From: a bacterium
GTDB taxonomy: Bacteria; Bdellovibrionota_C; UBA2361; RFPC01
DNA: 64,000 nt
Direction of reading: 5' to 3'
Assembly (NCBI GenBank): GCA_030431715.1
Contig: JAUIIO010000007.1
Span: forward strand, 33,756 to 97,755
Numbering within the stretch: position 1 is the stretch's first letter; each line of letters opens with the position of its first letter. Made by a program: the position numbers. Of this stretch, positions 27,001-33,000 are shown in pieces.

Positions 27001-30000
27001 CGAAGTCGTGTCTTGGAATCAGTTTCGATAATGAGGGATTCTAACTTACGTATAATCATGAAAATACATTTACTCTATCGGCAGAATGTGCAGAAAAGTG
27101 TAATTGTTGCTCGTAGAGCTTATTTCCCAAGAGCTTGAAGAATGCTAGTCGGATCGTATCCTCTGACAATGGTTGACCCGATCTTTGTGATTGGCACTCC
27201 ACCTCCTCCCCACTGGGTATGAAGCATCCTACCTTTCCTATCAGTTTTGATGTCGTACCTCGTATATGAGATATCGTTTTTTTCAAAGAGTCTTTCAACG
27301 GCCGTACAATATGGACACCCTTGCATTACAAGCACTACTGGTTTTTGAACGCGTGTGACCTTGCGCGGGTTATAGTTCGGATCGGGATGAGACGAAATGA
27401 GCGGTAATTGTGCCGGGGATTTTATTCTGCTTCGGTACCGCTGCGGAACCTGTTCAAGGCTGGTGACGTAGTGCTTCTGGCCGTATGAGTCAGTGTAGGT
27501 ATATACCTCGGCTGATACCGTGTTTGTAATACCAGATAGAAGCAGAAGGCAGATGAGAAAAAGTCCCTGTTGCATAAGAGTTAGATGTCGGAACCGTGGA
27601 AAAATAACTAAAGAATGGCAGAAAAAGTATCGAGAGGTAACCATATGGTTTTACAGCCTAAATTATTTTAGTTGATCGAAAAACCTGTTTTTTCATCTTA
27701 TTTGTACACAGGCTGAAGCAAGTAAGAGGGGATCTCAGATAGTGAGATAGGTGGTAGTGTTTTTTTAGTAAGGTTTTACATGCTCAAAGCCAGATTTCAT
27801 AAGAACTCTGATAGAGGCGCTGCCCTTGTAGAGACAGCTCTCGTTATTCCTGTGCTCGTATTGCTGCTGATTGGTGTTTACTACATCAATGCCAGAATGC
27901 ATGCTCACGGGCTCATTACAAATATTGCCCAAGAAGGATCCCGATTTCTCGCAAGGCGTGCCAGTCTTGGCGCGAATCCTCGTCGATCACAGATTTTCAT
28001 GCTGACAGATGATCCTAATACAACGGCGGATGAGACAGCTCTTGTGCCGCTTAATGTGCTTGGTAATCACGCTGCTGGTCATCAATATATGCGCAGGTTA
28101 CTAGTAGCAATGAATACTCGTGATTCAACTTTTCGAATTACACAGATACAAATTGAGACAGAGTTAATTACAGACATAAGCTCGACCTCTAACCCGAGTG
28201 GGAGTGGTTCTACAGCTGGTGAAGAGACAGATAGAATTCAGGCTATTATTCGTGCAACGATGGAGCCAGATGGTCTTTTCCCGGAAACAATGCTTGCGCC
28301 GATAGGACTCTCACCACTTACGGTCGCAGTTACTTCAAATCATCCTTATCTTTTTAGAGCTCAAAACGTAGGGGCAAATAATGGTAGCTAAATGGTTTAA
28401 GAAAGAAGCAGGTGCAACACTTGTTGAAGCAACACTGGTTGCTGGTTTACTCATTTCATTTGCTTTTGGAATACTCGAATTTGGAAGGTATTACTACTAT
28501 AAGGCAACTCTTCTTCGTGCGGCCAATAACGGCCTTGAGCTTTCTATACGTCACGCTGACATCCTAATCGATTCTACTGAAATTGATATGGATAAGACGA
28601 CTTCTGATAACAGTGCACCAGCCGAGCGCTTGAAGGCTGTCATTGATGAGATTGAGAGACGTGTGCTCACGCAAATAGACCTCGAAAGAGATTTGGTAGG
28701 CGCTGCGACTACAAGAGTAGCTGTGAATCAGAATATTACTACAAATTACAGCAATGCCAGTGCAACAGGAGAGCCACCGCTCTACGATCTCCCACCAAGT
28801 CGGGTACTGGTAATACGTCCTGGCGATCGTGGCAGGTATCTTGATCCGGCAACTAATACTGTCATTGAAGTGGTTCATCCTACGTATCCCGAGAGACAGA
28901 ACGGGGATGATTTTTTAAATATACTTCAAGAGCATCCTATTCTTATTGAGATCAATGCTCGTATGGCTTCTGTTATTCCACTTTTTCCTAATATTCCTAT
29001 CCGAGTTCAGGCAGTCGGTATCCCAGAAATCATTACACGTGGTATTCAAGGTGTTCCAGCGGAGCAAGAGCTTATAGATCCTTTTTGTGGAGACAACGTC
29101 TATCATAGCACTTTAGAGACTTGTGACATCGTTGATGGCGTATCTATGGGGGTAGATCCCGGTCACTTTTGTACAACGAGTTGCGAGCAGGAGCCGCTTT
29201 GTGGAAATGGTATTGTTGATGACGGAGAGGACTGTGATGGATGGCTCGTGCGAGAGGGATTGGATGATCTTGAAGAGGGCCTCAGAGAATGCGGTGGTGA
29301 TTGCAAAATTCGAGAGATTGAGCCGTGTGGTAATGGAAGGTGGGAGAAGGATGAACCGTTTTATGAAGAGTGTGATGCTTCTGCGAGTGAATCACTAACG
29401 AGAAATGTTGATGAGTACCTCTGTGTACAGTGTAAATGGTATGACATTACAGAGTGTCTATTTGGGAGTAATAGGATATCTGAGCCTTGCCTTGATCAGA
29501 ATATCCCAGCTGGATTTGAATGTATAAATTGTGTGCTCTGTGAGTGTGATAAAGATCCTGAAACAGGAGCAGAAGATTGTTCAAACTGTAAGGCTGGTAA
29601 GTGTGGTAACGGCATTAAAGAAGCGGGAGAGCAGTGTGATCGCTTTGATGGTACCAGTGACTCTTCTGAGTTCTGTAACGATTGCCGACTGGTAAAAGCA
29701 CTCTGTGGAAATAAAATTCGAGAAGAGCTTCCCGGCAGGTTCGATGGAGACCCACCATATATAGAAAAATGCGATATCGGAGCTCCAAATAATCCTGATA
29801 TTCCAGCCTCACACGTTTGCAGCGAGAATTGCACCATAGCATCCTTATGTCATAACAATAAGGTTGATAATGTAACCGCGCAATTCCCGGGCGATACAGA
29901 CTATTCTGAGGAGTGCGATGGGAATGCTGTTATTCCAGAAAAAGCTGACTTGCTTGCTCAAGACGATCACGAGTGCCGTGATTGTGCCGTACTCCCTCGT

Positions 30001-33000
30001 TGTGGAAATGGCCGAATTGATAAGGTGGGAAGTCATGTTGAAGAATGTGATGGATCAACGGGCGCGCCAGAAGGTGGGTACTGTGATGATGAGTGTAAGA
30101 AGAAGTGTAACATTGTTGCTGGGGTAGAAGGTACTCTTGATGATAGTGGGAGGTTTTGTGTTAGTAATGATATTGAATCTTAAGAAAAAGTTATCACACT
30201 TTCAGTGTGAAAGAGGTATGGCCCTTGCTTTTTTTGCGGTGAGTGCTCTTGTGATCATTGGCATGGTAGGCTTAGCCATTGATACGTATTTTGCGACAAC
30301 TTCTCGTACGCAGTACCAGTCTGCCGCAGATGCTGCCGCATATGCGGCTGTTGAAGGTTTCTATGATGCTTATGACCCATCAGATGGGGACTACCAAAAT
30401 GCTATGCAAAAAGGTATCTCTATGGCTCAAACTCGGGCTCAAGCGATACTTCAGCAAAATATGATTCGTCTTGTATCGAGTAGTAATATTAAGAACGCAT
30501 CAGCTCAAAACAATGTAAGCACCTCAGGAGGAACCAATGGAAGCCTTCAACCCGGTTTCTGGGTAGCCTCTGACTCATCTACAGCGCCTTGTTCGCCAGC
30601 ACCTTGCTTTTCCCCTTTAGATCTTGCGAGTGGAGATGAAGAAGTCCCAAATGCGTTTCGAGTAAATATTAATATTAGTGAACAGTCCCCCATCAGGACG
30701 TTCTTTATGGGAATACTTGGAGTCAATAACTACCGGCTAAGCGCAAGGGCGGTTGCAACCTCAGTCCCTCGTAGAGGCGCTTTTCTTATTGATTTGTCCC
30801 CATCTATTCATGGGACAACGCATAATAGTAGTGGCAGTGGAGCAATACAACAAACGCTTTATGCATATCCATTAAAGAATACGTGCAGTGCTTCTGACCG
30901 TGGACAGCCTATAGCCAGCGTTGATGAAATTTACGATCGTTCTGGAGATTCTGCCACTGGAGTAATCATCTCAGATGCCAGTAATCCCATTAAGATCTTT
31001 GACAATCTGTATAACGATACAAGTAGCGATCCTGAACCTGGAATGGATAGGATTCCCGGAATTTCATACAAATCAGATTTTCGTAAGGTTCCAATTTCAA
31101 CTCCTGAAACTGATTTCGATGGAACCACCATCAATAAATGCTTTGCCGTCGATGTCATGCGACAACCAGAGCCTATGAGTACTGTCTTACTCGGTGTTAA
31201 CACCGCACTTAATAACTTTGCGAATCGCTCAGTAAGAGGGGATCGTATTGGAGTATATGGGTTTGATGATTATGATGAATTTCTATCGATACGTTCCACA
31301 GTAGATGATGGCGGAGTTCCAAGTCTTATTAGCCCTGATATTGGTAGTAGTAGCTTTAAAAATATTACGGATGCAACGAAATCACCATTCACGCAGGGGG
31401 CTCTCGGATCACACGTCAATACCTTCCTCTTCCCGCAGTTTTTTAGCAATCTCAGTACAGGTGAAATTTATCCCAAGCCGGTGAATACAAATCTGAAAGC
31501 TGCTCTCGTTGAAGCACGGCGTATATTGGAAGAAGAGCCGGGTATGAGCAGCAGTGACAGCTTTGTTGTTGTATTTAGTGATGGTCGTAGTAACTGTATG
31601 AATGGCAGCTGTAATGCGCCGAGTAAGCAATTTACCAAAGGCGGTATCGATGATGCTGTTAATTATGTCTTATCTGAAGACTGGGGAGACGTTAATCTGC
31701 ACTTCGTTTTGGCCGGAAAAAATAGCATGCCTCATACCATTTTACAGGGTGGGCTAGATGAAGATGGTGACGGAAAAGCCGATACCTGTCTTGATGATTT
31801 TACTTCAAGAAACATTAAGGCTGCTTATCCTGGTGACCAGTATAAAGATTTCCGTGCTCGGTACAATTTTGTAAATGGTGATGCCAATCAAATAAGTGGG
31901 TATGGGAAAGTTCCAACTCGAATACTTTATCCCAGTAAGATTTATGATGCAGCAGTCGCCACCAGTGGCTTCTGGGTTCCACTACGTCCACCGTGTGTTG
32001 AGGGGACAAACCTTCTTGAGCGCATCGACAATCCTACTCCAGGTTCATATGCGGGAGCGTTTCACCGCGCCTGTAAGCAGCTAGGAGACGGGGAGAATCT
32101 CTCATTTAACAAGCGTGGGACACTGCCATCAGCATTACAGAATATACTCTATAAGAGCGATCTTGATGCCGGAGTGAGGGTTAATAACAGTTTTCCTAAT
32201 AGCTTGATTGGTCAGCACGGCAGGCTCTACTGCGACCCATACGGAAGAGATTTGGATACTCAGGTTCAGGAATTCATTAACCAGCTCATGAGACAAAACC
32301 CAATTCGGCTGGTAGCTAGCAGTTCAGATGGGCTATAAAATCTGTTTTATTACCGTAGCTTAGGCGGAGTATCTCATTTTTTCTGCGGTTGTAATCTATT
32401 GCTTAAGCATTGTTCCACTACTGACGACTTAACCCTTAGGGAATAAGAAGTATCGGGAGGATGTTGTGGATCCCACGAAGTTAGTTGTTCGTTCGCTTGT
32501 CGATCTTGGCGAGCTTGAGAATATGCCGTCTGATGAGGCAATTTACTCTCAGTCATGTGGTGCTGTTCGCACCTTAGCAGATCTTGGACTTATTGATGAA
32601 CAGAAAGCGCTTAAGGCGCTTAGTGCAAAGCTCTACGTTGACTACGTTGATCTAGACAGACTTCCAGAGGGAAAAAGGTTAGAGCCGCAGCACTTTGAAG
32701 AACTAAATCGGGAAGTTCTCGCGCGTTATAAGCTTTTTCCACTTTGGAAAGAGAAAGAGAGCTATGTTGTAGCTACTGCCAATCCGTTTGATATGGAAGG
32801 TATTAACCTTCTTGAATTTGCCTTGGGGAAAAGGGTTCAGATCGTTTTGGCAGAGGAATCAAAGATTCAAAGTAGCCTTACAGAGTATTTTCCAGATGAT
32901 ATTTCACAATTTGATATCCTTAGCGATCTTGAGAGCGAAGACTACGTTGAAATTCTGGGAAAAAATAGCGCAACAGAGTCAGATGATATTAATGCCAGTG

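Follow-up and report, generated by a model that had tools for sequence, protein, structure and literature searches.

A TadE-family pilin with a tandem cysteine-rich repeat tail, encoded within a conserved three-gene cassette of an uncultured Bdellovibrionota bacterium

How obligate and facultative bacterial predators recognise their prey is still an open question, and recent work has placed Tad/Kil pili, and the minor pilins at their tips, at the centre of prey contact. A 64-kb stretch of DNA from an uncultured member of the Bdellovibrionota (positions 33,756 to 97,755 of contig JAUIIO010000007.1, assembly GCA_030431715.1; hereafter the window, in whose own numbering coordinates are given) bears on this question through a single gene, at 28381-30183. 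An earlier note, made from the DNA alone, had described the product of this gene, the target of the present analysis, as a pseudopilin with a TadE-type N-terminus and an array of Cys-rich units, and had proposed it to be a minor pilin that displays a disulfide-rich module, presumably at the fibre tip. The question is what such an array is doing on a pilin. We consider it on balance probable that the target is a tip minor pilin of a Tad/Kil-type pilus, displaying a rigid, acidic, disulfide-rich and fast-evolving module outside the cell.

The TadE-type N-terminus and the pilin body

The TadE-type N-terminus is real. Firstly, Pfam TadE (PF07811) matches aa 11-51 of the 600-aa product at 36.2 bits, 13 bits above its cut-off of 22.9, and the same model matches 41 of the 42 members of the family described below. 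Secondly, the protein starts as a Tad-type prepilin does, with a short charged leader ending in Gly, a Glu at +5 and then a hydrophobic helix of about 20 aa (MVAKWFKKEAG followed by ATLVEATLVAGLLISFAFGIL). The Gly(-1)/Glu(+5) pair is the prepilin-peptidase motif of Flp, TadE and TadF proteins, subject to TadV/Flp-type processing, and from this known motif we infer cleavage after G11. Thirdly, both positions are retained by relatives, G11 being conserved at 90% or more, and E16 invariant, in an alignment of 37 family members. Fourthly, no N_methyl-type Pfam match was found on the target at E<=0.1, marking the leader as TadE-type, and there is no apparent signal peptide of the Sec type with a cleavage site, the charged leader, Gly and hydrophobic helix standing in its place. 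An ordinary Sec-secreted Cys-repeat protein with a spurious TadE call, which the usual occurrence of this repeat type in large secreted or surface proteins might suggest, is effectively refuted by the recurrence of the TadE match among relatives, the conservation of the body behind it, the fixed synteny with TadE-like and TadG-like genes, and the lack of an apparent Sec cleavage site.

The stretch of about 230 aa that follows, which the earlier note had left unassigned, exists as described, but proves to be a conserved pilin body, that of a distinct subfamily of TadE proteins. When 1.84 billion representative proteins were searched exhaustively with phmmer, 62 proteins were returned, about 42 of which have a counterpart of aa 1-225 of the target (as clusters at 50% identity). 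Within the family alignment, R146-P147-G148, H166-P167, P186 and P200 are conserved. AlphaFold2 (AF2) modelled the full-length protein with a per-residue confidence (pLDDT) of about 90 over aa 11-100 and 141-220, and the body alone with a mean pLDDT of 81 and a predicted template-modelling score (pTM) of 0.76; in the body model, an N-terminal helix of 53 residues is followed by another helix and a sheet of five strands, a predicted topology that is pilin-like. The best match in a sequence search of the PDB was no better than E 0.2.

At 600 aa the target is indeed large for a TadE/TadF pseudopilin, as had been remarked, but it is not a lone outlier, Cys-rich tails being common across the subfamily. 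Family members are typically 270-400 aa long, and nearly every one carries, after the body, a Cys-rich tail of 4-565 aa with a usually even number of Cys (4-92), often preceded by a Thr/Ser/Pro-rich linker. Many of these tails, including those of P0015, P0018, P0020 and P0022, start with a long linker of this kind, which precedes a small Cys knob. A word-indexed homologue search with the full protein as query found only the target itself, the index being swamped by Cys-repeat and hydrophobic words, and the same type of search with a body profile found four proteins, of which one is a family member (P0051) and three are short generic TadE proteins. Scans of species-representative genomes and JGI metagenome contigs with patterns from the orthologue alignment found nothing; the wider alignment of family bodies is too divergent to yield such a pattern.

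The cysteine-rich tail

The tandem array is equally real, and every unit string quoted in the earlier note was found. All 38 Cys of the target lie within aa 236-600, where they make up 10.4% of the residues, with none in aa 1-235; the first Cys codon, at nt 29086, places the earlier start of the array (29083) right to within one codon. Where six to seven units had been claimed there are seven, each with four Cys, starting at aa 236, 274, 316, 408, 442, 490 and 541 (Table 1) and following the pattern C-x10-21-C[D]-x11-19-C-x2-3-C, or, with its other recurrent residues, C-[GH]-[ND]-x ... (E)-x-C-D ... C-x2-3-C. When the tail was shuffled with its composition preserved, it contained a mean of 0.16 units, and none of 20,000 shuffles reached seven. 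The tail is acidic, with 81 D+E against 30 K+R. As no long DNA repeats join the units, the array is taken to be old, and recent tandem duplication of the units is ruled out.

Four full-length orthologues (P0005, P0006, P0007 and P0009; 540-579 aa, 29-33% identity in the A2 alignment) carry CGxG-type units, as do P0010, P0031 and P0012, the last of which is 779 aa long and has 92 Cys in its tail. Across five orthologues, about 30 Cys are invariant, whereas identity at other residues is 15-21% in the tail against 35-41% in the body. Hence the Cys scaffold is conserved while the surface that it holds changes fast. At the position of unit 7 and the C-terminus, the orthologues have a different Cys-rich C-terminal knob.

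The units had been said to match the Myxococcus-type repeat (TIGR02232, myxo_disulf_rpt, a cysteine-rich acidic repeat) or DUF4215, which stands as a statement of homology, but not as a match to either model. The whole tail matches neither, and the highest scores of its single units are 18.4 and 16.3 bits for TIGR02232, with a curated cut-off of 20.8, and 15.1 and 11 bits for DUF4215 (PF13948), with a cut-off of 27; no member of family set A3 reaches the DUF4215 threshold. Homology is indicated indirectly, by other comparisons. Firstly, the orthologue P0007 passes TIGR02232 at 26.0 bits. Secondly, phmmer aligned the units to the multi-repeat proteins P0008, P0011, P0013 and P0014 at E 8e-27 to 1e-10, the best match being P0008 (E 8e-27, over 20 stretches). 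Among these proteins, P0008 and P0013 clear DUF4215 (94.8 and 85.8 bits), P0011, P0013 and P0014 clear TIGR02232 (67.2, 135.8 and 41.3 bits), and P0013 and P0014 carry cell-surface DUF11/LPXTG domains. Thirdly, hhalign aligned family units with canonical units over their whole length (94.9% probability, E 1e-8), a score inflated by both sets having been chosen with the same Cys regular expression, although the non-Cys consensus 'CGNGi..E-CD' is still common to both. Judged by sequence, the window units are divergent TIGR02232/DUF4215 homologues, with longer and irregular loops, that fall below the model cut-offs.

Like the canonical repeats, they are acidic, tandemly arranged four-Cys units of the form CG(D/N)G-x-(E)-x-CD...C-x2-3-C; unlike them, they are 34-51 aa long with irregular loops, against about 35 aa. 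Canonical arrays are a feature of large proteins, secreted or on the cell surface, that have DUF11, LPXTG or trypsin domains, whereas this one is on a pilin. We know of no function for DUF4215/TIGR02232 repeats. The Disintegrin domain of ADAM/reprolysin proteins is disulfide-rich and adhesive, with a CGNG..EECDCG motif superficially like the window units; its Cys spacing differs, however, and the tail was ruled out as a Disintegrin domain, with no Pfam match to it at E<=10, whether for the whole tail or for single units.

The three-gene cassette and its proposed place on the pilus

The target is not a solitary gene. On nine contigs, the window and eight others, it or its relative always stands in the middle of a triad, between a small TadE-like gene and a gene for a TadG-like protein of about 700 aa. 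The order is the same in L002, L003, L005, a JGI contig, L086, L087 and L089, and is partially present in L004. Small TadE orthologues lie upstream of the target relatives in L002 and L005 (27-36% identity), with a small TadE-like gene at the equivalent position in L086, L087, L089 and the JGI contig. TadG-like orthologues lie directly downstream in L002-L005 (23-46% identity), and genes of 696-739 aa occupy that position in L086, L087 and the JGI contig. L086 has two tandem paralogous triads that share 57-62% identity, at 5259-9167 (186/370/739 aa) and 9426-13330 (190/371/735 aa), and beyond them come response-regulator and sigma-54 activator genes. In the window, the stop of the small TadE-like gene overlaps the start of the target by 11 nt, and the TadG-like gene, the true start of which is probably near 30167, overlaps the 3' end of the target, such that start and stop codons overlap at both junctions. 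The G/xxxxE motif (the slash marking the cleavage site) is found in only two open reading frames (ORFs) of the 64-kb window, the small TadE-like gene and the target. A promoter and terminator scan gave no usable operon boundary.

Around the triads lie unrelated housekeeping genes, with mur/mraZ genes in L087, hypothetical genes in L089 and glycosyltransferase genes in L003 and L086. Three loci, the window (20535-23471), L003 (476-1645) and L086 (3338-5047), have glycosyltransferase genes (GT1/GT2, GT4, PMT_2) a short way upstream of their triads, and together with the Thr/Ser/Pro-rich linkers this offers a hint that linkers or tails may be O-glycosylated. The TadG-like protein has a DxSxS MIDAS-like motif (FLIDLSPSIH), which is kept in the L086 paralogues; VWA_2 matches it at 17.9 bits, below the cut-off of 27, and the sequence suggests a divergent vWA domain in this partner.

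The cassette has much in common with the canonical TadE/TadF and TadG proteins of Aggregatibacter, Pseudomonas and Caulobacter (CpaJ/K/L): a TadE domain, a G/xxxxE leader, and a TadG-like neighbour with Tad and Tad_C domains. Canonical TadE/TadF proteins are about 150-200 aa long, lack Cys-rich tails and are encoded at the end of a complete tad operon, whereas the target has a body of about 225 aa alone, within a protein of 600 aa, and the core tad genes are not found within 64 kb. Modular pilins, in which a functional module is grafted onto a pilin carrier, are widespread according to a survey that took IPR012902, a T4a-type motif, as its key (Raynaud et al. 2021; PMC8179133). The target resembles such modular type IV pilins (Streptococcus sanguinis PilB with its vWA domain and PilC with its lectin, CofB of enterotoxigenic Escherichia coli (ETEC), and GspK of type II secretion systems (T2SS)) in its N-terminal carrier and grafted C-terminal module, probably presented at the tip, and CofB also in combining a repeat linker with a distal domain. 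It differs from them in its TadE-type leader, theirs being of T4a, T4b or T2SS type (IPR012902), and in its Cys-rich acidic repeats, where theirs are grafted vWA, lectin or beta-sandwich domains.

The closest parallel comes from predators. The Kil (Tad-like) pilus of Myxococcus is functionalised by four paralogous three-gene 'Tip' clusters of TadE, TadF and TadG homologues, in which KilM is short, KilL wraps its partners with a C-terminal extension, and KilN, which also has a C-terminal extension, is large with a distal variable domain (Herrou et al. 2025; PMC12075869). These clusters can stand alone from the core machinery, are predicted to be disulfide-rich, and are necessary for recognising and killing prey; the same study predicted structural analogues in Bdellovibrio, and its hidden Markov models found tip genes only in Myxococcota (PMC12075869). 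The window triad resembles the Kil Tip of M. xanthus in its architecture of one short, one extended and one large pilin, its paralogy, its isolation from core genes, its disulfide richness and its predator host. It is unlike the Kil Tip in gene order, which is L-N-M in kil cluster II and small, middle, large here, and in the place of its elaboration, the variable distal domain being on KilN and the 365-aa Cys array on the middle subunit; a DUF4215/TIGR02232-type tandem array on this subunit is not described by Herrou et al. (PMC12075869). The likeness to KilL, KilM and KilN is one of cassette architecture and setting. The tad genes of B. bacteriovorus are reported to be scattered among several loci, and its Tad machine to be necessary for attaching stably to prey and invading it (bioRxiv 10.64898/2026.07.08.737194); the window triad is likewise apart from core tad genes.

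The tip minor-pilin reading agrees with all that was found, the conservation of the triad included, and with the published Tip-complex model of predator Tad/Kil pili. On this reading, the target would be the middle (TadF/KilL-position) subunit of a self-contained three-gene minor-pilin cassette, serving a Tad/Kil-type (type IVc) pilus in an uncultured Bdellovibrionota predator. The hydrophobic N-terminus would insert the protein into the inner membrane, prepilin peptidase would cut after G11 to leave E16 at +5, and the alpha1 helix and beta-sheet body would co-assemble with the two partner pilins into a complex by which the fibre is primed and, at its tip, capped. Oxidative folding in the periplasm would give the C-terminal 365 aa up to 19 disulfides, and the tip would then carry an acidic, rigid, protease-resistant Cys module outside the cell, where the tail would contact a target surface, most likely the prey envelope, and/or wrap and stabilise the tip. 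Of the earlier proposal, the minor pilin with a disulfide-rich module therefore fits both the triad and the Tip model, while its presence at the tip, its exposure on the surface and the binding of a ligand, as by an adhesin, are what we infer.

Several observations weigh against this reading. No Flp or major pilin, prepilin peptidase (Peptidase_A24), secretin, TadB/C or platform gene lies within the 64-kb window; an operon with flp, tadV, rcpCAB and tadZABCD was likewise not found around the triad within 64 kb, and the triads of L086, L087 and L089 stand alone too. The absence of a prepilin peptidase and major pilin from the window would suit a target that never enters a fibre, the TadE-like N-terminus being an uncleaved membrane anchor that holds the Cys domain in the periplasm as part of an assembly or alignment apparatus. 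A secretin would have to pass a bulky subunit, 600 aa long and rigid in its tail, and the role and location of TadG-type proteins are debated. This is nevertheless very improbable, given that the G-1/E+5 processing motif is conserved in about 40 diverged members, that large modular pilins are known on filaments (PMC8179133), and that both the speed at which tails diverge and the tandem paralogues fit an exposed surface under selection.

The AF2 model of the tail (pLDDT 30-74) is too poor for interpretation of the repeat array, and neither its shape nor its exposure can be read from it. A further point, by analogy with Myxococcus, is that the tail may be structural rather than ligand-binding, since there the variable distal domain belongs to KilN and the KilL extension wraps its partners. 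In its full form, this alternative has the tail wrap or rigidify the TadG-like and TadE-like partners, or act as a stalk or shield, with ligand recognition left to the TadG-like subunit. KilL extensions have been modelled wrapping KilN and KilM, with KilN as the extremity (PMC12075869), the DxSxS motif and weak VWA_2 match of the TadG-like partner would suit ligand binding, and the strongly conserved Cys scaffold is as expected of a structural part. We regard it as unlikely, though as the foremost of the alternatives, as the surface residues of the tail diverge about twice as fast as the body, and tails of 4-565 aa that vary widely in type would be unexpected of a pure clamp on a conserved partner. 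Moreover, the tail is highly acidic and repetitive, like the surface-protein arrays of P0013 and P0014 (DUF11/LPXTG).

Table 1. Coordinates of the triad genes and of the parts of the target within the window
Feature	Position	Strand	Basis or remark
Small TadE-like minor pilin, 203 aa, triad gene 1	27780..28391	+	Pfam TadE 26.1 vs 22.9 bits; leader ...DRG/AALVE
Target gene, TadE-family modular (predicted minor) pilin with pilin body and Cys-repeat tail	28381..30183	+	600 aa
Putative class III leader, aa 1-11 MVAKWFKKEAG	28381..28413	+	Predicted prepilin-peptidase site after G11; E16 = +5
Pilin body, ~aa 5-235	28393..29085	+	alpha1 helix aa 5-57; helix aa 78-100; five beta-strands aa 142-213
Cys unit 1, aa 236-273, degenerate CGDN...CD...C..C	29086..29199	+	Its Cys invariant in orthologues
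Cys unit 2, aa 274-315, CGNGIVDDGEDCDG...	29200..29325	+	TIGR02232 16.3 bits, sub-threshold
Cys unit 3, aa 316-351, CGNGRWEKDEPFYEECD...	29326..29433	+	Cys pattern; orthologue alignment
8-Cys insert between units 3 and 4, aa 352-407	29434..29601	+	Not CGNG type; partly conserved in orthologues
Cys unit 4, aa 408-441, CGNGIKEAGEQCD...	29602..29703	+	Nearest to canonical; TIGR02232 18.4, DUF4215 15.1 bits, both sub-threshold
Cys unit 5, aa 442-489, CGNKIREELPGRFDGDPPYIEKCD...	29704..29847	+	Cys pattern; orthologue alignment
Cys unit 6, aa 490-540, CHNNKVDNVTAQFPGDTDYSEECDG...	29848..30000	+	Cys pattern; orthologue alignment
Cys unit 7 and 2-Cys C-terminal end, aa 541-600, CGNGRIDKVGSHVEECDG...	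30001..30180	+	Cys pattern; orthologue alignment
TadG-like large minor pilin, up to 733 aa, triad gene 3	30137..32338	+	Tad 30.4 vs 22.3, Tad_C 27.9 vs 22.1 bits

Neighbouring genes and the meaning of the family

The genes downstream of the triad raise a further alternative. A PilB/GspE-type ATPase (32466-34667, +), not of the TadA/CpaF type, is encoded 127 nt downstream on the same strand, with an MshEN N-domain and a C-terminal response-regulator receiver (REC) domain; it scores 511.8 bits for TIGR02533 and 536.1 bits for TIGR02538, below the equivalog cut-offs of both PilB and GspE. From its domain content, this fusion would couple a filament motor directly to two-component signalling, which is unusual. 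A second gene, 11 kb away (45549-47186, -), has only the C-terminal part of T2SSE together with a receiver domain. Further along, 6.7 kb downstream of the target, 36926-40039 (+) encodes a 1037-aa protein whose N-terminus is hydrophobic, whose reprolysin-like (M12B) metalloprotease domain spans aa 248-409, and whose C-terminal tail is long and highly basic.

The triad might then be the tip of a T2SS-like pseudopilus, driven by the adjacent ATPase to export cargo such as this protease, with the tail as a cargo dock, and a T2SS-like delivery role for Tips was itself raised by Herrou et al. (PMC12075869). Such a system is improbable. Both genes were rejected as conserved partners of the triad, being absent beside it in L086, L087 and the JGI contig, with no homologue in the other, shorter flanks. 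In addition, the ATPase falls short of both equivalog cut-offs, no GspF, GspD or GspG genes lie nearby, and the leaders are TadE-type rather than of the N-methyl-Phe type of T2SS.

Upstream of the triad and divergent from it, 27120-27644 (-) encodes an apparently exported glutaredoxin-like protein with a signal-peptide-like hydrophobic N-terminus, a CPYC motif and a weak DUF4124 match, for which the earlier note had envisaged a role in the oxidation state of the tail. The leader, the CPYC motif and the Pfam Glutaredoxin match (28.3 bits against 22.9) are genuine, but synteny is lacking: the gene is absent beside the triad in all seven other loci with upstream sequence. Because of this, the link amounts to adjacency in the window genome, and the protein was rejected as a dedicated folding partner.

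Other genes of the window are listed for completeness. An EttA-like protein has its best matches in Bdellovibrionota/Oligoflexia/Bacteriovoracaceae metagenome-assembled genomes, at 68-75% identity, from which the affiliation with uncultured Bdellovibrionota follows. A flagellin gene (23661-25522, +), the variable region of which contains an insert of FG-GAP repeats, is split by a frameshift into ORFs 23661-24497 (Flagellin_N) and 24593-25522 (FG-GAP_3 and Flagellin_C), with FG-GAP repeats in a third frame across the gap; the same split is called in the Logan assembly, and the gene is either a pseudogene or the product of an assembly error. A UDPGP-family (eukaryote-type) UTP-glucose-1-phosphate uridylyltransferase (40230-41660, +; 410 bits) adjoins a bacterial-type NTP_transferase of the sugar-phosphate nucleotidyltransferase family (41672-42559), and 1218-2591 (-) encodes a 457-aa protein with a dockerin type I domain. 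Within window positions 1-14400, ORFs 3051-4298, 4381-5016, 5054-6949, 7981-9231, 9700-11265, 11268-12104 and 13471-14349 had no Pfam match at E<=1e-4.

The design itself is known, both from the tip minor pilins of Tad/Kil systems and from modular pilins, and this is not a categorically new system; what is new is a TadF/KilL-position subunit with a long tandem array of the DUF4215/TIGR02232 type. Such repeats can therefore be grafted onto a pilin. Sequence-based searches had so far found tip genes only in Myxococcota, and the present analysis defines by sequence a family of tip-cassette pilins, with about 42 clusters, of which at least one is in Bdellovibrionota, the taxonomy being taken from the window only. 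Each combines a conserved carrier body with a highly variable, disulfide-rich display module. A more speculative suggestion, which we put forward with low confidence, is that the tails are interchangeable, fast-evolving, disulfide-knotted modules for target recognition on Bdellovibrionota Tad tips, with variation in tail length and type and the duplication of cassettes setting prey range. If so, the determinant of specificity would be on the TadF/KilL-position subunit, not on TadG/KilN as in the Myxococcus model. All members of the family come from uncultured organisms, and direct testing needs heterologous systems or a cultured relative. The family profile can be used to find similar cassettes in other genomes, and its members are candidates for tail-swap and binding work. 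The family provides an entry point, by sequence, to the diversity of pilus tips in Bdellovibrionota.

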